DNA from: a virus
Taxonomy: Duplodnaviria; Caudoviricetes
Strand: one strand, 5' to 3'
Length of the DNA stretch: 26,718 nucleotides
IMG/VR virus record: IMGVR_UViG_3300030376_001348
Span: 1-26,718 of that record
Shown here: piece after piece, positions 6,895 to 26,027 of the stretch
Layout: each line of letters opens with the position of its first letter
Position numbering within the stretch: position 1 is the first letter of the stretch
Translations under genes and position numbers: made by a program
The notes under the pieces: model-generated
The model's input: the letters and a program-made list of their open reading frames with translations, nothing else
Database searches by the model: none
What the model was told of the DNA's origin: nothing

Positions 6895-7928
6895 TATACT
6901 GGATAATTAATGTTGTTTATTGATACAGCTTCTGGAAATCTTGCTCTTAAATTTTTTCTAGCTTGTTGTATAAGTAATTGTTGATACTGCAATAAACTAT
7001 TTCTAATTGTATTAGAACTACCAATAGGTGCATTTGATACAGCTATTTGTTCTGTTATATATTTAGCGTCAATATTTTTTATATCTTTACCTGAAATCAT
7101 TTGTGCTGCAACACCAGACATAATAATTGGTTCATACTCTGTTTCTAAACCTACTGCAGTTAATGTTGTAGTTTCTGCTGTAGGTGTAACAAACTTCTTT
7201 TTAAAAGTTACATAACAAGTATGTCCTTCATTAATACCATAAAACTGTAATGCATGTACTACATCAGGACCAGTTGTATATGTTTTAGTTCTAGATGTTT
7301 CTGTATCATCTGTCCAGGTAAATGGATTAGGTAAATCTATCATTTCTACAGCTACACTATTAAATGTTAATCCTGTTTGGTCTGAACCTGCTTGCCAGTC
7401 TGTATATTGTGATATAGCTTTTATAGGAGTAACTAAATAATTATGACTATCTCCATCAGTACCATAAGTTCCTAACAATTTATAACCTGTAGCAGATGTA
7501 AGTTCTAGTGTTTGTACAGCAAATAATGTAGGATATAAGTTTTCTATTTGGTCTACTACAGCGTCATATACATTTTTACGAGGAAATGCAGGAGCTATTT
7601 TAACTAAAGAACCATTTTCATGTTCAGCAGCTGTAGTTCCTCTTGCTCCTCTAGTTACTGTTATTTCATTAGTTACAGTGTTTAAAGCAGTTGAAAACAT
7701 AAGCTCTTGTCCTACTTCTATAATTGCACCAGCATCCAATGCATCTTCTTCTTCAATTGAAAACAAGATACCATCATATTTTAATGTTGTACCTGAACTT
7801 GTTAATCCTGTTTTACTATCAGAAATAGAATCTGTATTAGTTATATACGAATAAGATTCGACACTATCTGCTGGCTCTAGGTATTCTCTAAATACCCTGT
7901 CTACTAGGTTGCCTATTGTGTCACTCAC
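6894..7928 (-). CDS. Head-tail adaptor/tubular protein A-like, with an inserted beta domain
   Basis: N-terminal T..(N/D)LVDRV helix and helical C-terminus; position after the capsid genes; GTG start. Confidence 0.6.
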   Translation of the reverse strand: MSDTIGNLVDRVFREYLEPADSVESYSYITNTDSISDSKTGLTSSGTTLKYDGILFSIEEEDALDAGAIIEVGQELMFSTALNTVTNEITVTRGARGTTAAEHENGSLVKIAPAFPRKNVYDAVVDQIENLYPTLFAVQTLELTSATGYKLLGTYGTDGDSHNYLVTPIKAISQYTDWQAGSDQTGLTFNSVAVEMIDLPNPFTWTDDTETSRTKTYTTGPDVVHALQFYGINEGHTCYVTFKKKFVTPTAETTTLTAVGLETEYEPIIMSGVAAQMISGKDIKNIDAKYITEQIAVSNAPIGSSNTIRNSLLQYQQLLIQQARKNLRARFPEAVSINNINYPV

Positions 7929-7936
7929 AATAACCC

Positions 7937-8269
7937 CTAACTTTGTTTAAATATTAAATTAATTTGTCTATCAGCTGCTTCAGTACTACCAGATGTTACT
8001 CTTAAGAAACCTATTGCAGCAAAAGCCCAACCACTAGGGTCAACTCTTACCATGTCTCCTGGGGAAACTGTATAAGATACTTCAGTACCATCTGTTTCTT
8101 TTACATCTACCCAAGTACTTCCATCAAAAGAAAAGTCTAGAGTTAATGCAGTACCAGTCATTGCTGCAGGAAATTGTATTCCTGACAATAACAAACCATC
8201 ACATTGTACTCCAGATGAGTTAGTTGCATCTGCTGAAACGTCTATTAAAACTTGTTTTTGTAATTGCAT
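7937..8269 (-). CDS. Small beta-sandwich virion protein (capsid decoration/spike-like)
   Basis: 110 aa, directly after the MCP; SFDGSTW motif. Confidence 0.5.
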   Translation of the reverse strand: MQLQKQVLIDVSADATNSSGVQCDGLLLSGIQFPAAMTGTALTLDFSFDGSTWVDVKETDGTEVSYTVSPGDMVRVDPSGWAFAAIGFLRVTSGSTEAADRQINLIFKQS

Positions 8270-8278
8270 GTTGTCCTT

Positions 8279-8287
8279 ACTATAGCA
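8279..8287 (-). promoter_or_regulatory. Extended -10 promoter TGCTATAGT immediately after the MCP terminator
   Basis: TGnTATAGT, 9 nt before ATG 8269. Confidence 0.55.
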
Positions 8288-8319
8288 GAAGAAAAGGGCA
8301 GGAGGTGGATTCCCACCCT
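8287..8319 (-). terminator. Intrinsic terminator after the major capsid gene
   Basis: Sense AGGGUGGGA-auccacc-UCCUGCCCU followed by UUUCUUCU; the G-U pairs work on the minus strand. Confidence 0.75.
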
Positions 8320-8341
8320 AATCTTCAATACTTCTATATTC

Positions 8342-9460
8342 TTAAGCTACGTCTTTGAATAGCAAGTGATATGAAGGAGGTCCAAAGTCGTATCCCATTT
8401 CCATGTAGATAGCTTTAGATACTCTTGCATAATCATCTTGGTCTATGTCTCTAACAAACACTGTTCCATATCCTGGGATATTTGTGAACACTGGTTGTAT
8501 AAACGCAAAGTCTAAAATAAATGCACTATTTGCAGGCATGATATTAGGGTCAATGACCATCATACCAATTGAACCGAATGGTGTAACAATAGTGTCAATA
8601 TCTATACCAGCAACATTTCTGTCTCTAGGTATGATTGCACCTGTAATACCAACAGTTCCCTGTAGTAGTTCTTTATTTAAGTCAAGTAGTTGCTTAGGAG
8701 TAACGCAAAGTACAGGAGACTGCATTGGTGCGTGAGCATCATATAGTCTCTTAAGTCCTTCTGAGATTGAATCCCATGAAAGTACTTTGTCTGCGCCACC
8801 TCCATCGCCATCAGCATCACAATAATGTACGTTACCGCCTACAAATGTAGGTGCAACTGTATTGTTAGCATTAGCGTTTAGTGCGCAATACTCTTTAAGT
8901 CCACGCATTTCTCTTGTACCAGCACCTGGTGTTGTATTAGCACCATCTGCGAATGTACCGTTGAATGCGAACCACTCTACTTCTCTAGCCACTTTTTCAA
9001 GTGCCATAGACATTTGCTCTGCGAACTCATCAACAATTGGATTTCCACCAGCAAGTGCTAGTTTATCTCCAGCTGTTACAGTTCCATCACCATCAGAGCT
9101 GTTTGCAATGTTTGCAGACAAGTCGAATGGATTTTGGTTTTGATAAGTTGCCATAGCTGTGTAGGTCATCTTAATTCCTTTATGGAAGATTTGAGTAACG
9201 CCTGTATAAGCGACTCTATCTCTACCAAGATACTCTGTTGGCTGCGCACCTTCTTGAGCTTTTGTTGGCTCAGAAGAAACTACAGCACTATCAGCAGCTT
9301 GGATTTGCCAGAAAGTAGATTGTAAAACCTTACCTCCGTTTAATCCTCCTGTTGCTGACAAGAAAGGAGTTCTTTGACCACCTACACGGAATAACTCACC
9401 AGAAAAGTTATTAATCTTCTGGGAGTAAATTGCATTGTTTGTCAGTGATATTGCTGACAT
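8342..9460 (-). CDS. Major capsid protein (HK97 fold; resembles the DUF5309/SU10-type family)
   Basis: 372 aa; TPFLS, TQIF and TPFGSI motifs; strong GGAGG RBS; follows the scaffold; downstream terminator. Confidence 0.85.
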   Translation of the reverse strand: MSAISLTNNAIYSQKINNFSGELFRVGGQRTPFLSATGGLNGGKVLQSTFWQIQAADSAVVSSEPTKAQEGAQPTEYLGRDRVAYTGVTQIFHKGIKMTYTAMATYQNQNPFDLSANIANSSDGDGTVTAGDKLALAGGNPIVDEFAEQMSMALEKVAREVEWFAFNGTFADGANTTPGAGTREMRGLKEYCALNANANNTVAPTFVGGNVHYCDADGDGGGADKVLSWDSISEGLKRLYDAHAPMQSPVLCVTPKQLLDLNKELLQGTVGITGAIIPRDRNVAGIDIDTIVTPFGSIGMMVIDPNIMPANSAFILDFAFIQPVFTNIPGYGTVFVRDIDQDDYARVSKAIYMEMGYDFGPPSYHLLFKDVA

Positions 9461-9470
9461 AATATACCTC

Positions 9471-9494
9471 CGTATTAAATTGTCGTATTAAATT
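9471..9494 (-). repeat. Tandem 11-bp direct repeat (sense AATTTAATACG x2) abutting the MCP Shine-Dalgarno
   Basis: + strand cgtattaaatt at 9471-9481 and 9484-9494. Confidence 0.9.
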
Positions 9495-9495
9495 A

Positions 9496-9963
9496 TTACT
9501 TATTGTTTTTCTGGTTTTCAATAAGCCCTAGCTTTGCTGCTAAGGAATCCTTAACAGAACCATTCTTTAGAATGTTTGCTAACTGCTCATCTACGCCAGC
9601 AGGTACATCTGGTACTGAATTTGCATCAAGTGCAGCTACTCTAGACCTTGCATCGTCTTGAATCACTGGCTCAGGTACAGATTGTGCTTCTTCCTGTACT
9701 TGAGTAGTAGCTTCATAACCATACTCATCTTTAGCAAACTGGGAAATAGACTCAATGTCTACTGGTCCATCATACACTTGCTTTAATGCTTTACCGAAAC
9801 CATTGTCTGTTTGTAATCCCAACTTACCAAAAACATTATTTAGCTCTTTATCTTTAAAAGATGCCAATTCTGCTTCTAGTTTCTTAAGCTGTTCATCTTT
9901 ACGTTCAACAGTCTCACGTAATTGTTTTACACCATGTTCTTGCGGTGCATCAAATTCTTCCAT
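9496..9963 (-). CDS. Capsid scaffolding protein
   Basis: 155 aa, acidic, N-terminal coiled coil, directly upstream of the MCP, GGAGG RBS. Confidence 0.75.
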   Translation of the reverse strand: MEEFDAPQEHGVKQLRETVERKDEQLKKLEAELASFKDKELNNVFGKLGLQTDNGFGKALKQVYDGPVDIESISQFAKDEYGYEATTQVQEEAQSVPEPVIQDDARSRVAALDANSVPDVPAGVDEQLANILKNGSVKDSLAAKLGLIENQKNNK

Positions 9964-9984
9964 TTTGTACCTCCACTATGTGTT

Positions 9985-10158
9985 AACCTGTCAGATAAGA
10001 CCATAGGAATCTTACCGTGGTGCTACCTAATGCACTTGACTTATTTCTCTGGTAGCTTCAAGCTATAAGTCCATTACTCTACGGTTTTTAATACGAGCTT
10101 TCTACGTAGGCTTTGAAAGCTGAGTGCAGGTCTATTAGCGGACCACGCAACGCTTAAT
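9985..10158 (-). ncRNA. Candidate structured cis-regulatory leader RNA with several pseudoknots
   Basis: At least eight complementary segment pairs within ~170 nt downstream of a TATAAT (see findings). Confidence 0.65.
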
Positions 10159-10162
10159 GTCT

Positions 10163-10168
10163 ATTATA
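10163..10168 (-). promoter_or_regulatory. -10 element TATAAT for the scaffold/capsid transcript
   Basis: Perfect TATAAT just after the upstream stop codon and immediately before the structured leader. Confidence 0.6.
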
Positions 10169-10170
10169 CA

Positions 10171-11190
10171 CTAATCTGCTATAAGTCCAGTAACTTCGTC
10201 ACCTTTTTTTGCAGAGCCTAACTGTATACCTTGTTTGGATTGTAGTTCTGCACTAATACGACTAAGTCTCTTAGTAGAAGCTTCATCACCTAAAGTAGCT
10301 TCTTCTAGTGTTTCTAAACTCAAATCTCTACCTATACTTGCAGCTGATGATATCATTCCTCCAGCACCTTCATACAATTGACTTGCTTGTGCTGAGGTTA
10401 ATCCCATTTTTCTTAGCTCATCAAATCTTGCAAATGATGTAGTAAACCCTCTAGATGATGCTTGTGCCTGTAACTGTATAGTTGCTATCTCTCCTAAAAG
10501 AACTTTATCTTGTATCTTAGGATTAATTAATGCAGCAAATATAGTTGGTTGGTCTAACGTTAAGTTGTATCTTTCTCTAAATAGTTTTTCTACTTCAGGT
10601 ATTTGGTCTTTAATTCCTGCATATACAGTATCTACACGTACTTGAAATTCTTCTGCAGATACTGGGTCACCTGTTTCATAACCTGTAGCCATATCAGTAA
10701 ACTCATCTTCAAAGTCTGTAAAGTCTGCAATACCTACTTCAGCAAGTGTTTGTTTGTAAGAAGCTTTAACACTCATAAAAGAAAGCTCATCCATTACTAA
10801 CGAACCATCATCACGCATTAACTTACCAAAGTTATCTTTCCATGCTTTAGTTTGTCTAGTAGCACCTAAGGCTACATTAGGGTCTCCACTTTTAACCCAC
10901 TCAGAAGAATAAGCTTTTAATACTTCTTCAGGCATAAACCCAAATAATGTTGTAGCTAAGTTGTATCCTTGACTAGCAGTACGTGGATTAGAAGATTCTG
11001 TACTTTCTGGTGCAGTTGTACTCCAACCTTCAACTAATTTTCTATTTAACTCTGAAACTGTTTCACCACTTCTTAAACCTTTTTGTGCTGTAGATACTGC
11101 TCCGTCTTTATAAATAGTAACTTGTTCATTTACAAACTCTGGTGGACCAGCAGTAATACTTATATCTCCGTAATTATATGGTCCTACCAT
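10171..11190 (-). CDS. Putative internal virion/ejection protein (339 aa)
   Basis: Helical, Cys-free, in the block between portal and scaffold. Confidence 0.55.
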   Translation of the reverse strand: MVGPYNYGDISITAGPPEFVNEQVTIYKDGAVSTAQKGLRSGETVSELNRKLVEGWSTTAPESTESSNPRTASQGYNLATTLFGFMPEEVLKAYSSEWVKSGDPNVALGATRQTKAWKDNFGKLMRDDGSLVMDELSFMSVKASYKQTLAEVGIADFTDFEDEFTDMATGYETGDPVSAEEFQVRVDTVYAGIKDQIPEVEKLFRERYNLTLDQPTIFAALINPKIQDKVLLGEIATIQLQAQASSRGFTTSFARFDELRKMGLTSAQASQLYEGAGGMISSAASIGRDLSLETLEEATLGDEASTKRLSRISAELQSKQGIQLGSAKKGDEVTGLIAD

Positions 11191-12467
11191 TATCCTACAT
11201 AACTCCTACTGGTTACAACACCACTACCAAATGTACTCATCATTGCGTTAGTTAAATCATTTTTAACTTTTTGATATCCTCTATCTAAGCCAACTTGTCT
11301 CATTAATTCTGTCTCCTTAGCGTAGTCATTAGTAGTAATCAATTGGTTTAACAATGGGTCATCATCTTTTAGATTAACACCCATAACTTCTGATGCATTT
11401 TGTTTTTTAGCATTTACAATTGTTTGCCAAGCAATATCTCTATCGTATTGTCCATAGAATTGAAACCTTCTATCTTTAAGATTGTTAATAAATATATCTT
11501 TATACAATGAATTATTACGCATTTCTCCTGCAACTTCACTTACAGTAAACTCTCCTTGTAAATGTTTAGGTAAGTACATATCTAACAAATTTTGTACTTC
11601 AGTTTCTTTAGCAGTAGTAGTTTTAATACTTTGTCCTTCTAATGCATTAATTAAACCTATGTCCATAGTAATACCTGCAGCTGGGTCAAATACACCTTGT
11701 ATCTGTGTAATAGCTTCTTGCTGTGTAAAGTAACCACGTCTTGTTTGGTCAGCTAAGTAATTTAAAGCTACTGTAGGTATTTCTGAACCATAGTTAGCTT
11801 TAGCTGTACGATTATATAAATCTGTATAAGTAATTAAATCTTTGTCAAATTGCTCAGGGTCAGTAAATTCTGCACGTTCAGCATCTATTTGTGCCTGTGT
11901 AACATTAAGTCTGTCTAATATAGAACCATACTTATCTGTTTTCTTAAAGTTAGTTATAGCTGTACCCATATCTCCACCAGAAGCTATGTAGTAAGATGCT
12001 AAGTTATTTACATACTCGTCATCATTTAGCAATGTAGAGGTAACTTCTGTTTGATTTTGTTCTACAGCTTCTAAAAAGTTATTAGCTATTTGTACAGCGT
12101 CACCTTCAATAGACAATATAGATGCAGGTACACTAACAAGTTTGTCACCATTTAAAAATCCAGCATCAAACTGGTCTTCAGACATAACAGTAATACCTTG
12201 TGATTGTCTAGCATCTCTTTCTTCTTTGTCAGTAATTTTAGGTTCAGTACGATTATCGTAATAGTTACTAATATCTTTTAAAGTTAAATCATCTGGTAAA
12301 TCAAGAGCATATGAATAATTACCTAAATCAATAATTATTTTATACCCTTCACCTTCAACATAAATTATCTCTGTACCTTTCCAATCAGACTTTAATCCTC
12401 CACTAAATTTGGCAGGAGCATCAGGTATTACAAAATCTTTACCTTCTATTACTGGACCTTCGTTCAT
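11190..12467 (-). CDS. Putative internal virion/ejection protein (425 aa)
   Basis: Helical, acidic, Cys-free; start and stop overlap the neighbours. Confidence 0.55.
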   Translation of the reverse strand: MNEGPVIEGKDFVIPDAPAKFSGGLKSDWKGTEIIYVEGEGYKIIIDLGNYSYALDLPDDLTLKDISNYYDNRTEPKITDKEERDARQSQGITVMSEDQFDAGFLNGDKLVSVPASILSIEGDAVQIANNFLEAVEQNQTEVTSTLLNDDEYVNNLASYYIASGGDMGTAITNFKKTDKYGSILDRLNVTQAQIDAERAEFTDPEQFDKDLITYTDLYNRTAKANYGSEIPTVALNYLADQTRRGYFTQQEAITQIQGVFDPAAGITMDIGLINALEGQSIKTTTAKETEVQNLLDMYLPKHLQGEFTVSEVAGEMRNNSLYKDIFINNLKDRRFQFYGQYDRDIAWQTIVNAKKQNASEVMGVNLKDDDPLLNQLITTNDYAKETELMRQVGLDRGYQKVKNDLTNAMMSTFGSGVVTSRSYVG

Positions 12468-12928
12468 TTTTTACCGCCTCCAAACAAATTTTTTATTCCA
12501 CCATATACTTTAGTTGCTGCATCAGTTTGATTAAAACCTAATTTTTCTTCAGTAAATTTATCTATAAACCTTATTGAAGGGTCATATGTAGACATGTGTT
12601 CACTAAATGCCTGTATACCTTGTTGATTTAATCTATCTCGTTCAGCAATATATTCTGGATTATCTGGGTCTTTTAATAAGTTTTGATAGTTTTCACCCAT
12701 TATTTCTGATTCATATAAACCTTTAGTTACAGCTACACCTAGGTTAACTAAAGTAAGTTGTCTAAATATTTTTACTAAATTTTGTGCAAATGGAGCAGCA
12801 GCAGTGTTAGCAAGTAATTTAGGTATACCTACTTCAAATGCTTCATCTATAGGAGCAACAGCTTTACCTAAAAAATCTAAACCTTTCATAGAATAATCTT
12901 GTATTTTACCAGTAGTTTCTTCAGCCAT
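12464..12928 (-). CDS. Putative internal virion protein (154 aa)
   Basis: Cys-free, amphipathic helices, overlaps the neighbours. Confidence 0.5.
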   Translation of the reverse strand: MAEETTGKIQDYSMKGLDFLGKAVAPIDEAFEVGIPKLLANTAAAPFAQNLVKIFRQLTLVNLGVAVTKGLYESEIMGENYQNLLKDPDNPEYIAERDRLNQQGIQAFSEHMSTYDPSIRFIDKFTEEKLGFNQTDAATKVYGGIKNLFGGGKK

Positions 12929-14352
12929 TATCCTCCGAACATGTATGTCAACATATCTTGTTGCATCTTTCTAACTTGTTTAGCATTCTGTGTAGCTTCT
13001 ACTACATTACCATACTCATCTTCAAATTGTTGTGCGCTAATTTCAGCAGGAGTTGCAAGAGAAAACATAGATAAATCTACAGTTCCTCTACCTGGATATT
13101 GTTCTTGTAAATTTTCTATTTGTGATTGACCTATACCTGCATACTCTGGTTGTGAAGTAAGAAAGTTATAGCTTTCTAATTCTTCTGCTTTACTTCTAGC
13201 TTGTGCATAAGCAACAGAATAACTACTTGCAAAGTTTGTAGACCATGTATCTAACTCTTGTTCTGTAGGTTTTCTACCTAACTTAGCTTCAAAATAACCT
13301 TCTACCATTTCTTCTAATGAACCTTGTGATGGAGGTATGTATTCAGCAGCAAGTTTTTTAGCAGCTTCTGCTTCATCAGCTTCATCTAATTTAACTTGTT
13401 TAGCTGCAAGTTCTTTTAATCCAGCATTAAATAAGTTTCTAGCAAAAGACCAATCGTTTACTTTAGCTTGTGTTTGTGAAAAATATACAGGTGCTAACTC
13501 TGTTTCTCTCATAATAGCTTTATAAGTTTCTGTTCCCTCTACAGCATACATATTGGTATCTATCCAGTTCATTACCATTTGTATAGATGTTCTAAGTTTT
13601 TCGCTAGATTCACCAATACTTTCTGCAAAATAATTATCTGGAACTAAATTATTGTCAGTTAAAAAGTTTTGAAATGCTATTATTTCATCTTCTGATGCAT
13701 AGTTATCTAATATCCCTGTAACAGGTGTACCTTCAAAATGCCCAGCAAAAGGTAACAAACTTGTTGTACCATCAGCATTTAGGACAGGTCTTAATGGCGC
13801 ACCATCAGCAGCTGATTGTAAGAATTGTAATTCTGCTTGACTTATATTTGGATTATTTTGTATATAGGTTTTTATAGACAACGGGTCATCTAAGTTAACT
13901 TTTTTACTTATTTGTTCAAATAAATTAATATCTAATAAATCACTACCTACTTCTACTGGTTGTGTTGGAGCGTCAGGGTCAGGTTCTGAAGGTCCACTTT
14001 CTATACCAGCTGCAATACCTGCTGCTGTTTGTGTAGGTCCAACTTGTTGAGTTACTTCTACGTCATCATCTGTTGTAGTAACTCCAGACATTTCTTCATC
14101 AAAACCTTCTTTAAAGTTGGTTATTGCCCCTGATAAAGGCATATCACCTCTTATTTGTTCTAATGCTTTTGCTTTAGCTTTTCTATCTGCATCAGAAGTA
14201 ACTTCCCAGTTAGCATCTAAATACTCAATAAACTTTGGTCCAGCTTGTTTAATTAAATCATTAATATTATTTAAATCTTCTATGTTTTGATTAACAGCAC
14301 CAAGAACTTCTTTATTAAATTTAGCTAGTAACTGTCCTAATTTTTTTGTCAT
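12928..14352 (-). CDS. Putative internal virion/ejection protein (474 aa)
   Basis: Helical, acidic, Cys-free; contains YFEAKLGRKPTEQELDTW. Confidence 0.55.
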   Translation of the reverse strand: MTKKLGQLLAKFNKEVLGAVNQNIEDLNNINDLIKQAGPKFIEYLDANWEVTSDADRKAKAKALEQIRGDMPLSGAITNFKEGFDEEMSGVTTTDDDVEVTQQVGPTQTAAGIAAGIESGPSEPDPDAPTQPVEVGSDLLDINLFEQISKKVNLDDPLSIKTYIQNNPNISQAELQFLQSAADGAPLRPVLNADGTTSLLPFAGHFEGTPVTGILDNYASEDEIIAFQNFLTDNNLVPDNYFAESIGESSEKLRTSIQMVMNWIDTNMYAVEGTETYKAIMRETELAPVYFSQTQAKVNDWSFARNLFNAGLKELAAKQVKLDEADEAEAAKKLAAEYIPPSQGSLEEMVEGYFEAKLGRKPTEQELDTWSTNFASSYSVAYAQARSKAEELESYNFLTSQPEYAGIGQSQIENLQEQYPGRGTVDLSMFSLATPAEISAQQFEDEYGNVVEATQNAKQVRKMQQDMLTYMFGG

Positions 14353-14355
14353 TTA

Positions 14356-17300
14356 TTATCTTTCTGGTAAATAATCTAAATATTCCTGGTCGTCTCTATA
14401 TAACTTTAACATAACACCTGTCCATACTGGGTAAAAGTCTGGATAATCTTGCATAGCTTGATTAGCTTTATTATACATCCATATACGTAATCCTTTAGCT
14501 TTAACGTCTTCTGATGTTAACCACCAATCAGGGTTTTGTGTAGCAGAATATAATGCAGATAATTCTTCTGCTTCTTTCCAATGTATCATCGCTTGTGCAA
14601 ATCCTTTAGCTGCATCTAGTTCCATAATTGCTGGATTAACTAACCATTGTGTTTTCATTTCATTAAAGATATCTTTTATAGCTGGTGGTGATAATAAACC
14701 ATACTCATCAGCTTGAAATCCAGGTAAAGCTAATTTTAATTCTTCTCTGTATAATCTTTTAACAATTGTTTTAGTATTACTATCTAATCCTGTTTTATCT
14801 AGATTTTTAGTAAATGTTTTATATCTAAAGAAACCTATAGTGTCATTTACACTTCTACGATATTGGTCAGGACTAAGTAAAGATTTTTCTCTTACAATGT
14901 CATTATAGTTTTTTTCTTCAAAAGGATTATCTATATTTAAGTAATAACCACTAAGTTCTAATGAATCAAAGATTTCAGAATTTTCTTTTTGAAAGTTTTG
15001 TACACGAACACTATAAGGTTGTTTGCCTGTTTCTGCTTGTGTTCTAGGACTTAGTAAATAAGGATGTTCTACACCATATAATTCAAAAAACTCGTTGTAT
15101 GTAGCTATATCATTACCTTGATTTTCTTCTCTAATCCTAGTGTACTCTTCATAAAGAACTGCTTGACCCCATTGATTACCTTGTTCATCATCAATAAAGT
15201 ATTCAGGTTGAAAACCTGTAGGTCCAAAGAATTGATATAAGAACTGAAAACCAAACAATGTACCAGATTTTTCTTTAGCATACTCTAAATAAGCTTTTTC
15301 TATCTGTCCTTGGTTAACATCACCTAAAGCTAAACCTGGTTGTAGTTTTTGTATGTATGTATCTAACTTGCCAGCATTATACAATCTCTCTGGTTCACCA
15401 GCTGATACACCCCATCTATACAAATCTATAGTAGCTTTAGCTCTCATACGTTCTGCTTCTGAACTTGCATCTGTTATAACATCAAAATCATCACTTCCTG
15501 TAAATAACCAAGCAGATAATTTTTTGTACACAGGAGATATAGATACAATATCAGTTGCTTTTTCTGGTGGTGGAAAATCTCCAAATAACATTTTTTCTAA
15601 ATCATTAGCCCAACCATACTTAGCACCCATTTTTGTACTTGCTGTTTCTATAGAAGGTAATACTTTATCTATACCAAATGCTACAAATGGGTTAGGTCCA
15701 GGTACAAATCCCTGTCCTAGTAAGTTAATACCTTGTACATAACCTCTAGGAGATATTTGTAATCCTTGCTCACCATCAGATAACTCATCATCTAAAATTA
15801 AATTAGACATAAAGCCACCAAATGGATACACAAACATATCTTCTTGTGGGTCTTGTGGATTAGGAACAAAGAAACCATCACCTGAACTAGGTCCTAATGC
15901 ATCTGCTGATGTAGCACCTCTAGTACCTACATAACCTTTTCTAAGTACATATGGGTTTTGTGCAAACAATTTACCCCATGTTTGGAATACTTCAAACCAT
16001 ACTTCAGCAAATGGAAATATGTTTACAAGTTTGTCAGATATAGTATGTTTTTGTTTTGTATCGTACAATAGTTCTTTAACACCTGCTAAGCCATAAGCTT
16101 TACTTTCTATGTTCATAGCTTGATAATCGTCTATTTTTCCAGGTTTATATATTTTACTAAAGCCACGTAACTCTTGTATAACTGATTGTGGTACACCAGA
16201 ATCAACAGCTTCTTTAATAAATTTGTTTCTAAGCCCTGTACTAAAATCTTCAAATCGTTCACCAATAAACATCCATCTAAATTGTTTAAATGTTGTTGAC
16301 CTATTTAAAGTACCTATTGGTTTAGACATTAAATTATCAAATACTTTTTGATAGAATATTTCCATAGCATCTTCAAACTGTCCTAAGAAACCTTTATCTG
16401 TAGTTTCATCTATAGTGTTTCTGACAACAGTCATAGTTCCAGGGTCAATACCATCTTCTTTGTTATAATATTTTTTAAGTTCATCGACAACTTTTTTCTT
16501 TTTAAACTCTTTCATAAGATTGGCTTCATTACTAAAAAACTCAATAGTTTCTTTTTTACCAGTTCCATCAGTACCAAATTTGTTTAGTTTACCTTCTGCA
16601 ATCATTTTTCTAATAGAAGCATTACCTGTATTTGTATTAGGTCTTATTTGATATTTATATGAACCATCAAGTTGTTTAACTATATCTTTACCGTTTATTA
16701 TTTCTCCACCAGAAGATATACGTATTCTTGATTCTAAAAATTGTAAATGTTGGTCAACAGCTTCAGAACCATCTTTTAATATTTCTGACCATTTATTACC
16801 ACCTTTACTTACAAGCATTAACCTAGCTTCTCTACCTGCTGGACTAAGTATCCATTTGTTTAATTCTTCAGAACCATAACCATATTGTGCTACTTTTTGT
16901 GACAATGGGTCATTACGTAAATGTCTAAGTTCTGAATATATAGATTCTCCAATTTCATTAACAGTCATTTCTGATTTTTGTTTACCAAGATATTCTAGAT
17001 ATTTATTATTTCTTTTACCTGCTGGACCTATGTCAGTAGGTTTAAATGTTTTTTGCATAGCCTCAATAACTTCTTCTTGCATAAGAAAATCAATAGCATC
17101 TTCATTATAAGTAGCACCTTTGTATTTAGATAAAGGCATACTTTCAAGTATCTTACCTACTTTAGAATTAGGATTATGAGCAGCTAACCATTGTAAATAA
17201 CTTATTGGTTTGTTGTATATTCCTGATAAACCTTTTACAGCCATACGTGCTTGCTCTTCCATAAACACACGTGTAAAAAATGCAGCTCTCATAAGCACTA

Positions 17301-20112
17301 AAGGTTTAAATACATTTCTTGTATAGAAATTTGTAAGGTTTGTAAACATATTGTTTTCTAGTCGTTTAACTGATATAACACCAGGTTCAAAAGGATTTAC
17401 AGCATTCTTTGAATCTTTAGACCAAGGAGCATGATACTTTGTCCATTGAGTCATATCATGTCTAAAACTTGATTTAACAAAATTACCTTCGCCAACTTTT
17501 TCGTAAGGTTTAAACATTTTACCCATAGCTTTGTTAAGCAACCTATAATCAAGTAACGGTGCAATGTTATCTTGCATTTCATCAAACAATGAAGCTGTCA
17601 TAGTAGTAACAAGTTCACCTTTATTGTTAACTGCGTTACCTAACTCATCTATTTCATAACCTTTGTAATTAGAACCTATGTTAGGAAGTATTTTATTATT
17701 TTTACCAGTAGCATATATTTTCATTTTATCTTGTCCAGAAAACATTTCTTGTGCAGCTTCTGCGACATATGTCCAGTTACCACCTCTAGCTTTAACAAGT
17801 TCTACGTCACGACTTGATTGTTCACTAGCAAATTTCCTAATAGCTGTTTTATCACCTGGGTCTATATCTAAAAAGTTATTTAATATTTTAGATGCTTCAC
17901 CTGGGTCATAACCATTAACTTGCAAATGTGAACCAAGTTGTCTATAACCTACTTCAATATTATTAAGTGGTATACCCATTTCAGGAATAACACCTAATGT
18001 TTTTCTAAACCAAGGATTGTAGCTAGCATTAAAGTTAGAACTAAAACCTAAGTATCTTTCAAATGCAGGTAACTCTATACCCTCTGCTAGTTGTTCTGTG
18101 TAACTCATAACACCTTGGTCAGCTTTACGTGCAAGATAAGTTTTACCTACACTATCCATAGTGTCTACTACTTCGTCAACTGAGTTTTCTACTCTAAGTA
18201 AACGTGTAGGTTTTGTAGGTATAACTTCTCTAACTTTTCTAGCTTTTTCACCAGCCCAGCTACCAAATGTTCTATATGCAGCATTAGGATTAATACCTGT
18301 TTTTTGCAATACTCTGTTTGTAACTAAAGAACCAGTTTTAGGCATTAACCTACCAGGCAATGTATACGGTACAGCTTCTCCAGCTTTATTAGTAATTTGG
18401 AATCCAGACTTACCAATCATCTGACTATACAAATCTTGTATTTTTAACCAGTCATCTTCTTGTGTAATAGCTTTTTGTATTTGTCCAGGTAAGTTTCTAG
18501 TTATAGGATTTGTTTGTATATAAGCTAATTGGTCTGGTCCTGTATCAGCAAGTGTTTTAAAAAATGCTACATTAGTAGGTTGATTAAGTATTTCATCCTG
18601 TGTTGTTTGAAAAAACCTAGGCACTCTACCAAATAGTGTATTTTCTTTTTTAAGTTTCTTTAAAGCTTTTCTAGTAGATGTAAAATCTTTGCGGTATTCT
18701 TTATCTTTAATAAATCTACCATTATTGTCTAGATATTTATTAATATCTCCTTTACCTGTTTGTCCATCTATTTCATCACCAACAGTACGAAGTATCTCAT
18801 CAGCTTGCGCTCTAGGAGATATCTTAACTGTTTTACCTGACTTAACTAGCTTACCATTGTCAAACAAGTCAAATGCTTTGTTTACACCACGTAAACCTTT
18901 ATTTAAATTCTTTACGCCTCTGATACCTTTACCTGCTAATATTTCAGGACCTATTTGATAAAAAGCATCAAGACCACCAGACAACAAATCGAACGCTCTA
19001 GAGCCTGGCTCATAAAATTCTGATGCAGTTATTTTACCTGGTGAGTATTCAAGTAATATATCTTTGTTTGCCCATTCAGGTCTATAAAAATCTTGTTCAT
19101 CTTGTCCAGCCCAGAAATACTTTTGCTTACGTCTACCTGCATAAAAGTTAACTTTGTTAGGGTTATATGCAGATGTATAATGTATTTCACCATTTTCATC
19201 ATATTCTTTTAATGGCTCACCAATATTTTCATATATAAAAGCTCTAGCACTTTCTGGTGTCATACCATAGTTTTCTGTTAAATCTTTGTAATAAGGTGTA
19301 TTTTCTGCTTTAACAGATTCCATAGATATTTTTGTAGCTCTATCAAAGTTAAGTGGTTTACCTTGTACTACATTTCTCCACATGTTAGCTAATATTGGTT
19401 CGCCACCCATATTGTGAGCTTCTTGTAACATATCTATGTGTTTCTTTATATTATCTATACCCTCACCTTCTTTACCTAAATTCTCTACAGAAGTTTGACT
19501 TAGGTCAATTTGCAACATACTTTGTGCTTTTTGTGGTGTATAACCTTTTTTAAGTAGGTTATCGTATTGTTTTAAATCTCTTAGGTATGCTTGTGACCTA
19601 CCTACTACCATAGGTTGTCCTGGTGTTACAGCATTAACTACAGAAGATAATACTGACCATTTACCAGAAGGACCTACAGTTTGAAATAATGCATCTAAAG
19701 CAGCAAATGCCCATACACCGTATTGGACATCACCTGGTTTAGCTCCACCTGGCATTAAACCACCTGTTAACAAATCACCAATAGACATCTTCATATTGTT
19801 TTCAGTATGCTCATATCGGTATTTTTGTTGTAACTCGTTCCATAATCCTGCTGTAGCTACAACTTTATTGTTAGTAATATCTTGTGCAATTTCTTTTACA
19901 GCTGCATAATCTGGTGGAACACCAGCAATAGCTAGTCCTGCAGATACGTCAGCAGGTAATTCTGGAAATCTTTCTGCATAAACTTCCATATCTTTAATTA
20001 TTTGATTGTTGTCTGTTAAAGCTGATTTGTATTGACCTGATTGTAATGAATCTTGATTTGCACCACGCAGTATATCGTAATATTCATTACGGTCATATAG
20101 AATGAAACCCAT
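14356..20112 (-). CDS. Large internal virion/DNA-ejection protein (1918 aa; large polyvalent protein/T7 gp16-like role)
   Basis: Size; no Cys; FKPLVLMRAAFFTR and IFPFAEVWFE segments resemble conserved parts of large podoviral ejection proteins (LPD38-like, from recollection). Confidence 0.65.
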   Translation of the reverse strand: MGFILYDRNEYYDILRGANQDSLQSGQYKSALTDNNQIIKDMEVYAERFPELPADVSAGLAIAGVPPDYAAVKEIAQDITNNKVVATAGLWNELQQKYRYEHTENNMKMSIGDLLTGGLMPGGAKPGDVQYGVWAFAALDALFQTVGPSGKWSVLSSVVNAVTPGQPMVVGRSQAYLRDLKQYDNLLKKGYTPQKAQSMLQIDLSQTSVENLGKEGEGIDNIKKHIDMLQEAHNMGGEPILANMWRNVVQGKPLNFDRATKISMESVKAENTPYYKDLTENYGMTPESARAFIYENIGEPLKEYDENGEIHYTSAYNPNKVNFYAGRRKQKYFWAGQDEQDFYRPEWANKDILLEYSPGKITASEFYEPGSRAFDLLSGGLDAFYQIGPEILAGKGIRGVKNLNKGLRGVNKAFDLFDNGKLVKSGKTVKISPRAQADEILRTVGDEIDGQTGKGDINKYLDNNGRFIKDKEYRKDFTSTRKALKKLKKENTLFGRVPRFFQTTQDEILNQPTNVAFFKTLADTGPDQLAYIQTNPITRNLPGQIQKAITQEDDWLKIQDLYSQMIGKSGFQITNKAGEAVPYTLPGRLMPKTGSLVTNRVLQKTGINPNAAYRTFGSWAGEKARKVREVIPTKPTRLLRVENSVDEVVDTMDSVGKTYLARKADQGVMSYTEQLAEGIELPAFERYLGFSSNFNASYNPWFRKTLGVIPEMGIPLNNIEVGYRQLGSHLQVNGYDPGEASKILNNFLDIDPGDKTAIRKFASEQSSRDVELVKARGGNWTYVAEAAQEMFSGQDKMKIYATGKNNKILPNIGSNYKGYEIDELGNAVNNKGELVTTMTASLFDEMQDNIAPLLDYRLLNKAMGKMFKPYEKVGEGNFVKSSFRHDMTQWTKYHAPWSKDSKNAVNPFEPGVISVKRLENNMFTNLTNFYTRNVFKPLVLMRAAFFTRVFMEEQARMAVKGLSGIYNKPISYLQWLAAHNPNSKVGKILESMPLSKYKGATYNEDAIDFLMQEEVIEAMQKTFKPTDIGPAGKRNNKYLEYLGKQKSEMTVNEIGESIYSELRHLRNDPLSQKVAQYGYGSEELNKWILSPAGREARLMLVSKGGNKWSEILKDGSEAVDQHLQFLESRIRISSGGEIINGKDIVKQLDGSYKYQIRPNTNTGNASIRKMIAEGKLNKFGTDGTGKKETIEFFSNEANLMKEFKKKKVVDELKKYYNKEDGIDPGTMTVVRNTIDETTDKGFLGQFEDAMEIFYQKVFDNLMSKPIGTLNRSTTFKQFRWMFIGERFEDFSTGLRNKFIKEAVDSGVPQSVIQELRGFSKIYKPGKIDDYQAMNIESKAYGLAGVKELLYDTKQKHTISDKLVNIFPFAEVWFEVFQTWGKLFAQNPYVLRKGYVGTRGATSADALGPSSGDGFFVPNPQDPQEDMFVYPFGGFMSNLILDDELSDGEQGLQISPRGYVQGINLLGQGFVPGPNPFVAFGIDKVLPSIETASTKMGAKYGWANDLEKMLFGDFPPPEKATDIVSISPVYKKLSAWLFTGSDDFDVITDASSEAERMRAKATIDLYRWGVSAGEPERLYNAGKLDTYIQKLQPGLALGDVNQGQIEKAYLEYAKEKSGTLFGFQFLYQFFGPTGFQPEYFIDDEQGNQWGQAVLYEEYTRIREENQGNDIATYNEFFELYGVEHPYLLSPRTQAETGKQPYSVRVQNFQKENSEIFDSLELSGYYLNIDNPFEEKNYNDIVREKSLLSPDQYRRSVNDTIGFFRYKTFTKNLDKTGLDSNTKTIVKRLYREELKLALPGFQADEYGLLSPPAIKDIFNEMKTQWLVNPAIMELDAAKGFAQAMIHWKEAEELSALYSATQNPDWWLTSEDVKAKGLRIWMYNKANQAMQDYPDFYPVWTGVMLKLYRDDQEYLDYLPER

Positions 20113-20504
20113 TAACCCTGCCTATTATTAATTATTTCTAATATAACAGGTGATGGATTAACTTCGTATATAGCTTGTAAAATTGTATCTGTGTTGTCTT
20201 GTATCTTCATTGGACCAGCTCCTGCTCCTATTGGTACACCTTGAGTACCTGGTTCACCAGGTCGTTCAGTTGGTGCAAAAATATTAGGTGCAACTACAGG
20301 TTGATTGGCTACAGGTAATGGAGCAATCTGTTGTTGTTGAGTTAAGTCTTTTTGTTCTCCATAACCAACACCAGGCATTCTTCTTAATGGTTGTGTTTTA
20401 CTACCTGCACCACCATCTGTTCTATTTCTATCTGGTGTAGCTACTGGAGCTGGGTCTGATGGTTGTCTATAACCACCTCTACCGCTAGTTCGAGTCTTTG
20501 CCAT
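20112..20504 (-). CDS. Pro/Gly/Gln-rich hypothetical virion protein (130 aa)
   Basis: RGGYRQPSDPAPV...RTDGG; lies downstream of the portal; stop overlaps the next ATG. Confidence 0.7.
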   Translation of the reverse strand: MAKTRTSGRGGYRQPSDPAPVATPDRNRTDGGAGSKTQPLRRMPGVGYGEQKDLTQQQQIAPLPVANQPVVAPNIFAPTERPGEPGTQGVPIGAGAGPMKIQDNTDTILQAIYEVNPSPVILEIINNRQG

Positions 20505-20652
20505 TATGAAAATCCTTAGTTATTAATATAATTATACCTGTACTAGGTGTAATAATTTCTGTTATGTTTTCAGATAATATATCCATTTCGTCCATAACAC
20601 CATATTCGTTATAAACCATATCCCAAAACTCTGCTTCTACAAATTCTTCCAT
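20485..20652 (-). CDS. 55-aa acidic hypothetical protein
   Basis: Start reassigned to ATG 20652 (MEEFVEAEFW...), 1 nt after the portal stop; the longer 20691 start overlaps the portal. Confidence 0.5.
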   Translation of the reverse strand: MEEFVEAEFWDMVYNEYGVMDEMDILSENITEIITPSTGIIILITKDFHNGKDSN

Positions 20653-20653
20653 A

Positions 20654-22441
20654 TTACATTCCAAATGCTTGTGCCATTGTTGGCGGTCCACCTTGTCCTC
20701 CCATCGCTTGTGCCATCTGTTGTTGTATTAAAGCTTCTTGTTCAGGTGTCATCTGTGGTTCTTCAGGAGTATAAAACTGTTTCATAATTTCAGTAACTTC
20801 GTTTGGATACTCATAGATAGCAATAGCAGCCATTGTTGCTGCAGGGTCGCCTTGTGATGACCTAGCTAATATAGAATCAAACAAAACACCCTCTGCTTTA
20901 TTTTTTCTAATACGTTCTTGTACCTTAGCTATATTTTCTAAACCATCAATGTTATCTTGTAGTGTTTCTACGTCTATAACACCTGCTTGTAGCAATTGCA
21001 AACCAGTTACAATTTTCTGCGGCTCATCAAATCCAGCCATAACACCATAGATACGTCTGGTATTGTAATCACCAGCAATATCAGCTAGTGGTTTATAGTT
21101 TTCACTAAATGCAGAACCTTTAAGAAAACCTGCCATAGGTTTTTTTGCAATCCCTTGTGAGTAAGATAAGACTACATCAAGCTCTAATCTCTTAGAGTCC
21201 ATGTCTTCTAATGCTTGTTTAACTATTTCTCTATATTCATTAATCATTAATGACATAGTTGAGTTCAATTCTGACAATCCTGCACCAGTAACAAAAGAGT
21301 TAGGTGACTGTGAATCATCAGTAACTGGGTAACCACCAACCATACGTAACTGTCTTTCCAATCTATCTACTTGTTGGAATAACTGATACGGCATGTTATT
21401 CATTGGTTTAGAAACTTGCGTACCTGGAGCTAGATAATTTACTGCAAATCTACCTTTTCTGTATTGTCCAGATTCTATCTCTCCTGATATGTTAGTTTCT
21501 GTAAATACTGCATCTTCCATGGCTATTGAAGACATAATATTAATTTTTGCCATCATAGACATTAAACCAATTACATGGTCATATTGTCCTTTTAGATGGT
21601 CAAAAGATATACGTTTCATAAACACAAACGGTGGTGTAGATAATACGTTTGGTATAAAGTCAAGAATCATATTACGTTCTGGGAATACTACATAAGTACC
21701 ACCCATGTCATAATATTCAATAATTCTTACACCAGAGTATGTGTTATCTTCCCAACCTTGTTCTCTGTTATTTTCATAAGACATAAACGGTGTAGCTGTT
21801 TCTGAGTAGTTGTTATCAGCTGTTTCATCTTCATCTACTTTTAATATTTCGTCAGCAAACTCTGGATAGATTTGTGCAAGTTTATACCTAGGTACACGTC
21901 TTACTACAGCCATTTCTCTTGGTTGTTGGTCAGGTCCAAAGTTTCCTGGGAATGTATCGTATGGGTCTCTTAGTTCTGCTGATGGATATATAAATCCATT
22001 AGTATCTCTTTTAGTTGTTATAACCCATGCACAAAAACCATATCCAGGTAACCACCTAGATGCTTGTGCTAATTGTAAATTAAGATTTTGTTTGTCATCA
22101 TAGTTAGTAACAATACGTTCTAGTTTGTCAGCACGCATTTTACTTCTAGTAGAGTCATTGTCGTTAGGTACATCTACTCGTACTTGAGGTATACCTGAAA
22201 TCTTTTGTGCAAGTCTGTCAATACCAGACTGCAACATGTTAGGAGCTGGTAATAAATCAGCATCAGAGGTTTCCATTGTATTACCCAATAATGCTTTAAT
22301 GCCATCTGCACCACCATTAAGAATAGCTTTTATTCTAGCTTTAGAAATTTGTCTTTCTTGTACTAGCTTTCCAGAAGTTAACTCGGAAGCATTTCTAACA
22401 ATCTCTTTATAAGATTTAATGTCTAAGTTTTCTATCCCCAT
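20654..22441 (-). CDS. Portal (head-to-tail connector) protein
   Basis: 595 aa directly after the terminase; helical; Q/M/G-rich C-terminal tail. Confidence 0.85.
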   Translation of the reverse strand: MGIENLDIKSYKEIVRNASELTSGKLVQERQISKARIKAILNGGADGIKALLGNTMETSDADLLPAPNMLQSGIDRLAQKISGIPQVRVDVPNDNDSTRSKMRADKLERIVTNYDDKQNLNLQLAQASRWLPGYGFCAWVITTKRDTNGFIYPSAELRDPYDTFPGNFGPDQQPREMAVVRRVPRYKLAQIYPEFADEILKVDEDETADNNYSETATPFMSYENNREQGWEDNTYSGVRIIEYYDMGGTYVVFPERNMILDFIPNVLSTPPFVFMKRISFDHLKGQYDHVIGLMSMMAKINIMSSIAMEDAVFTETNISGEIESGQYRKGRFAVNYLAPGTQVSKPMNNMPYQLFQQVDRLERQLRMVGGYPVTDDSQSPNSFVTGAGLSELNSTMSLMINEYREIVKQALEDMDSKRLELDVVLSYSQGIAKKPMAGFLKGSAFSENYKPLADIAGDYNTRRIYGVMAGFDEPQKIVTGLQLLQAGVIDVETLQDNIDGLENIAKVQERIRKNKAEGVLFDSILARSSQGDPAATMAAIAIYEYPNEVTEIMKQFYTPEEPQMTPEQEALIQQQMAQAMGGQGGPPTMAQAFGM

Positions 22442-24345: not shown

Positions 24346-24364
24346 TTAACTATCTTCCTTTAGA

Positions 24365-24412
24365 TGTTTGTATAGTGAGAATTATATGGTATAGTCCTGT
24401 TTATTACAAACA
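24365..24412. promoter_or_regulatory. Back-to-back bidirectional promoter flanked by an 8-bp inverted repeat
   Basis: Minus-strand TATAAT (24381-24386) abuts plus-strand TGGTATAGT (24387-24395); TGTTTGTA 24365-72 pairs with TACAAACA 24405-12. Confidence 0.6.
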
Positions 24413-24430
24413 CTTAACACAAGTATTTTG

Positions 24431-24586
24431 TTACAGGTGAAGTTGCAATCGGGATGCGGAAAGCTGCTGACTGGCGAGACAGTACACTAGAAAGACAAAG
24501 GCAGTACCCAAGGACTCAAGAACTTGTTAGGTCAAACATCTACCCCTAATGCCCGCTAACGCCCGTACTTACTGGGGTTTCTGTAA
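24431..24586 (+). ncRNA. Candidate structured non-coding RNA divergent from terL
   Basis: GC-rich island with no credible ORF; closed by UUACAGG/UCUGUAA; internal hairpins with purine-rich loops; possible pseudoknot. Confidence 0.55.
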
Positions 24587-24617
24587 AGAATTACCAGCAT
24601 ATATTTCTAGACATACG

Positions 24618-24623
24618 TATAAT
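24618..24623 (+). promoter_or_regulatory. Possible -10 element TATAAT for the early transcript
   Basis: Perfect hexamer just upstream of the hairpin series; no clear -35. Confidence 0.45.
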
Positions 24624-24701
24624 ATAGAGACAGGTCAGGTTAACATATGGTAGTCAAAGACTATACTATGACCAATAAAAGAATTAACCTACTAAATTTT
24701 C

Positions 24702-24759
24702 TATATACTGTATCTTACCTTCCAGACTTCTGGAAGTCAGGTAAGATACTTAGTATATA
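24702..24759 (+). repeat. Bulged hairpin 1 (TCCA bulge, GACTTC/GAAGTC)
   Basis: tatatact-gtatcttacct-[tcca]-gacttc-tg-gaagtc-aggtaagatac-[tt]-agtatata. Confidence 0.85.
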
Positions 24760-24839
24760 CAGTTAAATAAAACAGTATGTAGTCTATTTAAGTTCCCTTA
24801 CTGCCTAATGATTTCCTATACAATATAATAAACTATGAT

Positions 24840-24874
24840 ACGTTCTCTCCCGACTACAAAGTAGTCGAGAACGT
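24840..24874 (+). repeat. Bulged hairpin 2 (TCCC bulge, GACTAC/GTAGTC)
   Basis: acgttctc-[tccc]-gactac-aaa-gtagtc-gagaacgt. Confidence 0.85.
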
Positions 24875-24895
24875 CTCGAAGAAAGGATAACTATA

Positions 24896-25027
24896 ATGTT
24901 TAACTGTATAAAATGTGATATGAATATGTGGAGTGATGAGATACTTGAGAATAAAACTTGTGAACATCATTTTCCATATATGGATATACAAGAACCTATT
25001 GAGTTAGGTCACTCAGAATTATCTTAA
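24896..25027 (+). CDS. 43-aa Zn-finger-like early protein
   Basis: MFNCIKCDMNMWSDEILENKTCEHHFPYMDIQEPIELGHSELS (CxxC...CxxH); GAAAGGA RBS. Confidence 0.7.
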   Translation: MFNCIKCDMNMWSDEILENKTCEHHFPYMDIQEPIELGHSELS

Positions 25028-25097
25028 TTTATACATATCTTAAAGTCTGTCCTTCCGACTTCTGAGAGTCGGACAGACTTTTGGATATATATATAAA
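25028..25097 (+). repeat. Bulged hairpin 3 (TTCC bulge, GACT/AGTC)
   Basis: aaagtctgtcc-[ttcc]-gact-tctgag-agtc-ggacagacttt (25042-25081) with AT-rich outer pairing. Confidence 0.85.
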
Positions 25098-25157
25098 TAT
25101 ATGTATGTCAGCTATAAATAATCAATTATAAAATAGATTAAGAAAGGAGATTATACT

Positions 25158-25415: not shown

Positions 25416-25419
25416 ACAG

Positions 25420-25466: not shown

Positions 25467-25509
25467 TGTTATGTTCTGTAAGTAATTAGTCAAAGAAAGG
25501 AATTAAGTT

Positions 25510-25749: not shown

Positions 25750-25750
25750 A

Positions 25751-26019: not shown

Positions 26020-26027
26020 TTAAAACA

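Follow-up and report, generated by a model that had tools for sequence, protein, structure and literature searches.

Genomic context of the leader

The window, by which we mean the whole stretch of DNA analysed (26,718 nucleotides), is a 26.7-kb linear record, 63% complete, of an uncultured marine phage. Its minus strand carries a terminase gene, several large unannotated genes, a 207-nt gap, an ORF of 155 aa and a major capsid gene. A preliminary description, made from the letters of the sequence, had singled out this gap and a TATAAT hexamer ahead of its potential structure. Both are present (9964-10170 and 10168-10163, minus strand), as is every one of the complementary stretches that it had listed, position for position. 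The features of the locus are as follows.

10163..10168, minus strand: -10 hexamer TATAAT, a likely promoter, about 8-10 nt before the first stem, placing the probable start near 10156
9964-10170 (207 nt), minus strand: leader gap between ORFs 10171-11190 and 9496-9963, both on the minus strand
9969..9974, minus strand: Shine-Dalgarno sequence GGAGGU, 6 nt upstream of the AUG at 9963, invariant in 73/73 rows of the alignment described below
9496..9963, minus strand: likely capsid scaffolding protein, 155 aa, so labelled from its place before the capsid gene and from weak leads
8342..9460, minus strand: major capsid protein, 372 aa (PF17236 SU10_MCP, E 1.3e-41; phrog_1328, major head protein)
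8285..8319, minus strand: GC-rich hairpin (8319-8295) with a U-rich tail after the capsid stop, a likely 3′ end or processing boundary

The 155-aa protein belongs to phrog_7813, a group of unknown function. The nearest named Atlas clusters were DUF4355 (0.90) and Phage_scaffold (0.89), which are leads only. Its structural model is of low confidence (pLDDT 65) and consists of a long N-terminal helix and a C-terminal helix pair; the best two Foldseek matches were scaffolding proteins, at non-significant E-values of 0.042 and 0.49. PF06810 (Phage_scaffold, of which we take Phage_GP20 to be the older name) matched one of 10 scaffold homologues, below the cut-off (E 0.072), and a search of the PDB with the scaffold profile gave no informative match. 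The scaffold proteins are acidic, with a mean pI of about 4.6 and a net charge of about -10, and are 23-39% identical across clades that have the leader modules in common.

Several other sequences in the window were recorded. The AU-rich gap between the scaffold and capsid genes (9471-9494) holds an 11-nt direct repeat; in the relatives sampled it folds weakly, as does the AU-rich ribosome site of the capsid gene. A near-identical 15-nt repeat at 10062-10076 and 10178-10192, joining part of the leader to the last codons of the upstream gene, is probably due to chance. Two long non-coding inverted repeats (24690-24769 and 25030-25093) lie between the terminase and early genes, each with an 18-nt spacer containing a similar 14-nt core, and are possibly origin, packaging or operator sites.

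Predicted fold of the leader

Folded as a single sequence, the leader has a nested minimum free energy equal to that of its shuffles (z = 0.05). The preliminary description had noted that the gap is almost fully pairable; since the single sequence folds no better than shuffles, this counts for nothing on its own and relatives are needed to decide. A set of 149 distinct leaders, the window's included, was assembled from scans with the scaffold and capsid proteins and with one DNA pattern. Alignment A2 takes in 73 distinct ones that are of the same type as the window's leader and 66-98% identical to it; its rows L061 and L264 are 5 nt short at the 5′ end. The gap measures roughly 205-212 nt throughout, in loci whose upstream protein is down to about 40% identical.

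On this comparative evidence the gap is conserved, and four H-type pseudoknots in tandem (A-B-C-D) are predicted for it, a structure that is well supported. All four lie on the minus strand:

10126..10154, minus strand: pseudoknot A; stem 1 10154-51/10140-37, stem 2 10144-41/10132-29 with 10148-47/10127-26
10077..10122, minus strand: pseudoknot B, capped type; stem 1 10121-15/10102-096, stem 2 10109-05/10083-79
10022..10071, minus strand: pseudoknot C; stem 1 10071-65/10044-38 with extension 10062-61/10048-47, stem 2 10056-51/10027-22
9974..10021, minus strand: pseudoknot D, capped type; 10021-19/9988-86, C10017-G9992 and 10016-10/10000-9994, stem 2 10006-02/9980-76

The 15-nt repeat noted above takes in stem 1 of module C. 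Linkers of 0-5 nt join the pseudoknots, and the model gives about 10 coaxial pairs for A, 12-14 for B, 13-15 for C and 16-17 for D.

Under this model 97.6% of 3679 cells in A2 are paired (90.2% when shuffled, 0/500), and 26 of the 51 model pairs show a change on both sides (14.8 when shuffled). When the partners were slid against each other, pairing dropped to 30-40%. Shuffle statistics ignore relatedness, so changes were also counted along the branches of a tree. Each helix shows one or more compensatory changes within a single branch, and all eight stems covary. In a tree-based scan, the model holds all six column pairs with at least three events and 10 of the 14 with at least two. The scan passed 79 column pairs, 24 inside the model and 55 outside it with one or two events (nearly all one); the latter were treated as background from long branches. 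RNAalifold, which cannot represent pseudoknots, returned for A2 an invariant long-range helix that has no two-sided change, and out of the modules either stem-2 helices (four of them) or a single hairpin.

In module A, stems 1 and 2 are 92.8% and 98.4% paired, with 3 and 2 pairs changed two-sidedly; stem 2 is the weakest in A2, having two single-branch compensatory events, and covaries in other clades too. Module B has conserved pairs C10122-G10094 and C10110-G10077 with a one-base bulge before each, and its pair 10107/10081 changes on four separate branches. Module C, which is confined to the window's clade, leaves an invariant stretch (10037-10033) unpaired. The helices of module D are 97.3, 100 and 100% paired, with 2, 7 and 3 pairs changed two-sidedly; its loop pairing with 9980-9976, which stops one base short of the Shine-Dalgarno sequence, keeps 5/5 pairs in 73/73 rows, three of them changed two-sidedly. 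A further pair, C10007-G9974, is possible and would use the first Shine-Dalgarno base. Within the window's clade, conservation reaches 97% or more at around 25 of the unpaired positions. With the model nucleotides locked, the mean unpaired probability of the Shine-Dalgarno sequence rises from 0.44 to 0.65 (56/73 rows), partly by construction.

The preliminary description had proposed an interlocked arrangement, to be judged by aligning the leaders of relatives. Its central claim, a conserved multi-pseudoknot RNA heading the scaffold and capsid genes, is borne out by covariation in A2. So are its hairpins (10154-51/10140-37, 10121-15/10102-096, 10071-65/10044-38 and 10016-10/10000-9994) and two of its loop pairings (10109-05/10083-79 and 10056-51/10027-22), all of which covary in the 73 leaders. 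However, its three long-range helices did not hold. The enclosing helix 10128-23/10036-31 is 70.1% paired and intact in 5 of 73 leaders, and the loop pairing 10147-42/10021-16 is 90.0% paired with zero two-sided changes; jointly they reach 80.3% against 80.4% when shuffled. The closing helix GACCUG/CAGGUU is 86.0% paired (86.5% when shuffled), again with zero two-sided changes. As a whole the earlier model pairs 92.7% of cells, and 18 of its 19 two-sided pairs (of 47) lie in helices common to both models. It had overlooked that the first loop's partner is the strand directly after its own hairpin (10144-41/10132-29 and 10148-47/10127-26), and it lacked pseudoknot D, which reaches to the Shine-Dalgarno sequence of the scaffold gene, with the extension of the last hairpin (10021-19/9988-86). 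The unsupported long-range helices, together with these local partners of the first and last loops, point to a chain of four local knots, in place of the single ribozyme-like domain first envisaged.

Modular architectures in relatives

The DNA pattern gave at least 120 matches in viral contigs, of which 80 were inspected: 51 lie before a scaffold homologue, two are true leaders cut by the contig end, and in the other 27 module B is absent downstream and the match was judged to be chance. Two sets of 9 loci, with too little upstream DNA or no usable start, were left out. So was locus L040, from a GC-rich phage, which has a weak scaffold match and a different upstream sequence. That sequence (L040:2185-2437) gives no match to model R1 and may include a hairpin loop with a pairing of its own ahead of the Shine-Dalgarno sequence.

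Four architectures were found, namely A-B-C-D (87 leaders), A-B-E (43), A-B-D (15) and A-B-A′-D (4), each forming one group on the scaffold-protein tree (74 rows; long branches flagged). The last three belong to more distant relatives, in which modules C and D are exchanged or dropped. For A-B-E, 96.0% of cells are paired in 43 rows, with two-sided change in 10/31 pairs; for A-B-D, of which 13 of the 15 leaders were aligned, 92.7% are paired and 13/31 pairs changed two-sidedly. The four A-B-A′-D leaders were assigned by eye and by descriptor. The A2 covariance model recovered members of all three other architectures (12 of the 18 loci given to it). Few bases are invariant across the four clades, and no repeat family was found among the modules within the leader.

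Modules B, D and E share a signature in which each stem ends in a C-G pair past one bulged base of the 3′ strand; as these C-G pairs are invariant or nearly so, we infer them. A descriptor of this capped signature, written from these same leaders, scored exactly two in 87/87 A-B-C-D leaders and at least two in 41/43 A-B-E, 4/4 A-B-A′-D and 4/15 A-B-D leaders. By comparison, 11 of 745 shuffles contained one and none contained two. In three complete relatives, 6 of the 8 matches fell inside the leader. The distance from the last capped module to the AUG is 10-12 nt in 87/87 A-B-C-D leaders, and 14-18 nt in 4/4 A-B-A′-D and 33/43 A-B-E leaders. The full leader model found a single match in each of five near-complete relatives. 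In genomes of the candidate host order it matched one of 65, on a phage contig, and none of the other 64; cultured phages gave no match to either leader or scaffold.

Two local variations were seen among these relatives. Part of the A-B-E clade (L222, L224, L225, L228, L229 and L231-L234) has a small extra hairpin between modules B and E. In a subgroup of the A-B-D leaders, the sequence upstream contains a TTGACT -35 hexamer flanked by the arms of an inverted repeat (L092:1790-1817 and L402:1770-1805), possibly an operator or the terminator of the upstream gene.

The likely transcription unit

In 72/72 A-B-C-D relatives, the 30 nt ahead of the module A loop contain a hexamer of the form TATAAT, TATACT or TCTAAT, against a background of 32 in 890 30-nt windows on the window's minus strand. 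The copy at 10163..10168 was not listed by a consensus promoter scan because a canonical -35 is absent. No minus-strand terminator was found between the array and the scaffold gene. The hairpin after the capsid gene is the top terminator-like site among those listed for 7000-26718; of 90 distinct relatives, 77 have a terminator-like hairpin there, compared with 3 of 900 shuffles. With the array starting about 9 nt past a conserved -10 hexamer and this hairpin after the capsid gene, it is likely that the array heads a 1.9-kb, two-gene scaffold-capsid message.

Contigs from 4/4 seawater RNA libraries (of 24 listed runs) cover the leader, scaffold and capsid genes of relatives, with DNA carry-over possible; in X3 and X4, single contigs have pieces in both the leader and the scaffold gene. 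Upstream of about 10215 there is almost no contig cover, and the ends at 10143 and 10142 belong to contigs of X2 and X3, respectively. These ends were not taken as proof of a start site, the upstream gene being divergent and all cover coming from contigs of RNA runs.

The tip of the post-capsid hairpin reads CCACC in 80 of 89 distinct relatives, even where the stems are unrelated. A Gly-Gly codon pair near the capsid start (9382-9377, minus strand), some 1040 nt away and complementary to this tip, is GGTGGT in 109 of 112 sequences. Pairing between the two was rejected, as there is no compensatory change and other Gly sites reach a codon bias of 0.92-0.94. Directly after the hairpin (about 8288-8280, minus strand), TGCTATAGT resembles an extended -10 promoter for the next gene and occurs in many relatives.

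Candidate hosts

Which host the phage infects is uncertain. A search of GTDB located related capsid genes in a single Actinomycetota MAG, on two phage contigs binned with it; the order of this MAG, with genomes of 0.6-1.1 Mb, would fit Ca. Actinomarinales (PMC7771536). Capsid relatives from cultured phages are 24-28% identical and mostly actinobacterial, 22 of 24 being named as Mycobacterium, Propionibacterium or Bifidobacterium phages. WhiB was found in none of five relatives, no host marker among the 23 proteins of one complete relative, and no 16S gene in the Actinomycetota MAG. One complete relative encodes a small SET-domain protein (L489:16104-16439).

Among 41 genomes of the candidate host family, itself a weak assignment, RNase E/G was found in 36, and RNase J gave one long match and none above the cut-off. 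The sole long match (L483, in G028) has a stop inside it and could be contamination.

Comparison with known RNAs

The preliminary description had been unable to assign the fold to a known family, and Rfam 15 agrees: there were no matches in the window at the gathering score, none in 9900-10250 at E-values up to 10, and none in 11 related loci covering all four architectures. The leader RNA is modular and uncatalogued. In pseudoknot riboswitches (preQ1-I, SAM-II and the like), stem 2 sequesters the Shine-Dalgarno sequence; here stem 2 ends 5′ of it, and at most one invariant C-G pair involves its first base (A-B-C-D clade). Module E was considered as preQ1-like and gave no Rfam match. HDV-like ribozymes have a nested double pseudoknot and other self-cleaving ribozymes have known catalytic cores, whereas the topology of the leader is tandem, with no Rfam match. 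Type III antitoxin arrays have a terminator and a toxin gene after a run of nearly identical repeats; the leader has no repeat family and no minus-strand terminator, and head genes lie downstream. The xrRNA fold is ring-like, with a three-way junction and a ring-forming pseudoknot; a junction or enclosing helix is unsupported in the leader, and RNase J is rare in the candidate host family. Flaviviral xrRNAs do resemble it as tandem pseudoknotted elements; theirs protect the downstream RNA, and they stop bacterial RNase J1 in vitro (PMC5760640).

In largely open-access full-text literature, no description was found of phage capsid or scaffold leaders with several pseudoknots, in tandem or otherwise. 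The available text of papers among the nearest (PMC10690425, bioRxiv 10.64898/2026.09.22.753630 and PMC5737381) holds no description of the leader RNA. PMC10690425 lists 10,006 candidate RNAs, some before Phage_GP20, DUF4355, Phage-scaffold and capsid genes, and since its alignments were built from IMG/VR, part of the leader RNA may be among them. These candidates and the Rfam families GP20-a (RF02991) and GP20-b (RF03003) are alike in being structured RNAs directly before scaffold-type phage genes. However, GP20-a and GP20-b gave no covariance-model match; their models are 72-107 nt, and tandem pseudoknots are not described for them in the available parts of PMC10690425.

By analogy, the leader would work most like an RNase E scanning obstacle, its layout is like the upstream pseudoknot domain of TMV and its place is like the T4 gene 32 leader, yet it fails membership in all three. 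The RNase E obstacles (Richards and Belasco 2023, PMC9943677) are alike in having at least 8-15 coaxial pairs in a 5′ UTR, but each consists of one pseudoknot, of viral or telomerase origin, engineered into an E. coli reporter, whereas here there is a natural array of four. The TMV domain (PMC4683447) also has at least three consecutive pseudoknots, in which structure counts above sequence; it precedes the tRNA-like structure in a plant RNA virus's 3′ UTR and binds eukaryotic factors, in contrast to a 5′ leader of a tailed DNA phage. The gene 32 operator of T4, T2 and RB69 (PMC3014915) is likewise an H-type pseudoknot in a phage mRNA leader, and its message is also unusually stable. It has one pseudoknot, some 67 nt upstream; from there to the start codon the leader is A+U-rich and unstructured, ribosome site included, and the gene 32 product is an ssDNA-binding repressor. 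Here four pseudoknots reach the Shine-Dalgarno sequence of a head gene, no such A+U-rich stretch is present, and likely scaffold and SU10-type capsid genes follow.

Proposed function

The leader may be a constitutive 5′ stabiliser that blocks RNase E scanning into the message and leaves the ribosome site open. This reading, drawn from the behaviour of the E. coli enzyme, is the one we favour, at about even odds. RNase E of E. coli scans monophosphorylated RNA from the 5′ end; H-type pseudoknots with 8-15 coaxial pairs impede this scanning gradedly, stem-loops are bypassed, and protection in reporters levels off above about 50 Å (PMC9943677). In the present case, host RNA polymerase would start near 10156 and end or pause at hairpin 8319-8295, giving the 1.9-kb message. 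The modules would fold locally and in order, each with about 10-17 coaxial base pairs. After removal of the 5′ pyrophosphate or a cut in a linker, the next pseudoknot would confront RNase E. The last pseudoknot would pass straight to the initiating ribosome and, as it adjoins the ribosome, no long single-stranded stretch would lead into the coding region. Local pairing would also occupy C-rich tracts otherwise able to pair with the Shine-Dalgarno sequence. The outcome would be a long-lived message for the most abundant virion proteins.

The array is bounded at both ends, at fixed positions, by the conserved -10 hexamer and the Shine-Dalgarno sequence. Within it, stem sequence varies freely with the pairing maintained, and module number and type change from clade to clade, which fits a barrier based on shape better than one protein's recognition site. 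The single copy in five near-complete relatives, the conserved 3′ hairpin, RNase E/G in the candidate host family, the Shine-Dalgarno sequence that opens when the model is locked and the seawater RNA contigs are counted in favour of a stabiliser too. Against a stabiliser, RNase E scanning is known from the E. coli enzyme and engineered reporters, whereas the host here is uncertain. Moreover, with protection saturating as described, four modules exceed the need for one obstacle, there are more invariant loop bases than a barrier obviously needs, and a pseudoknot ending at the Shine-Dalgarno sequence could hinder initiation. A barrier directed against RNase J was also considered and is made less likely by the rarity of matches to that enzyme in the candidate host family (0/41 above the cut-off).

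The conserved unpaired positions, and a signature common to two modules, fit a repeated protein-binding site as well as tertiary contacts. The leader could be a translational operator whose capped modules B and D are bound by scaffold in its free form, or by a different head protein, so that ribosomes are blocked or held where the scaffold gene starts and the scaffold-to-capsid ratio is set; we consider this rather unlikely, but the foremost alternative. The last module abuts the Shine-Dalgarno sequence in all four architectures, the capsid gene has the AU-rich, weakly folded ribosome site noted above, and the capped signature is duplicated in nearly all A-B-C-D, A-B-E and A-B-A′-D leaders, but scored twice in few A-B-D leaders. 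Precedents are T4 gp32, which binds a leader pseudoknot (PMC3014915), S15, which binds the rpsO pseudoknot (PMC3985624), and the autoregulating P22 scaffold (from titles cited in PMC2115188 and PMC5529062), along with the candidate RNAs tabulated upstream of Phage_GP20, DUF4355 and Phage-scaffold genes (PMC10690425). However, the scaffolds are acidic and diverge between clades with the same modules, and neither a conserved alternative fold nor a helix sequestering the Shine-Dalgarno sequence was found. Autoregulation of the P22 or T4 gp32 type, which the preliminary description had cited, is ranked second because the scaffolds are acidic and the leader lacks the unstructured A+U-rich region that covers the ribosome site in T4. 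The two models, stabiliser and operator, are mutually compatible.

It is improbable that the stacked pseudoknots are a translation enhancer, docking on the 30S subunit or recruiting S1 and raising initiation independently of decay. Their spacing to the Shine-Dalgarno sequence is constant and their loops are A-rich, S1 binds and unfolds H-type pseudoknots (PMC7038950), and the three consecutive pseudoknots of TMV aid translation and replication (PMC4683447). Nevertheless, the Shine-Dalgarno sequence is already strong and is invariant in the window's clade, and the start codon is 60-190 nt away from the upstream modules.

We give very little credence to a tandem riboswitch with B and D (or E) as duplicated aptamers for a small molecule or ion. 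Duplicated compact pseudoknots, invariant loop bases and an adjacent ribosome site would suit one; on the other hand, no Rfam riboswitch matches, few bases persist across the four clades, the downstream genes are structural and the signature G lies outside the Shine-Dalgarno sequence in three of the four clades. Just as slight is the chance of a stand-alone or assembly RNA, either a processed decoy for a host defence nuclease or a portal-scaffold nucleation site on the mRNA. Compact tandem pseudoknots could persist as a stable fragment, and in P22 the portal has been suggested, on little evidence, to interact with mRNA (PMC5529062), but a minus-strand terminator ahead of the scaffold gene is absent, the modules are not sequence repeats, and there is no second copy in five relatives and none in 64 other cellular genomes. 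A self-cleaving ribozyme that processes the late message is hardly credible despite several pseudoknots and invariant unpaired bases, as a nested or enclosing helix is unsupported, the modules are exchangeable and no Rfam ribozyme matches at E-values up to 10.

Returning to the stabiliser, we would suggest, more tentatively, that the leader belongs to an undescribed, phage-wide class of modular pseudoknot armour evolved against RNase E on head-gene messages. In bacteria it would be the equivalent of tandem xrRNAs, made up here of a new pseudoknot with two C-G caps, which may double as a repeated binding site that couples head-protein levels to the fate of the message. If true, it would be a natural, evolved use of pseudoknots, as opposed to hairpins, to block RNase E scanning. 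The capped pseudoknot would be a new small fold for structural work and a possible portable mRNA stabiliser. The 149 leaders in four architectures would serve as natural compensatory variants able to separate the stabiliser and operator models, and a small lytic phage could, on this reading, raise its most abundant proteins through RNA alone.
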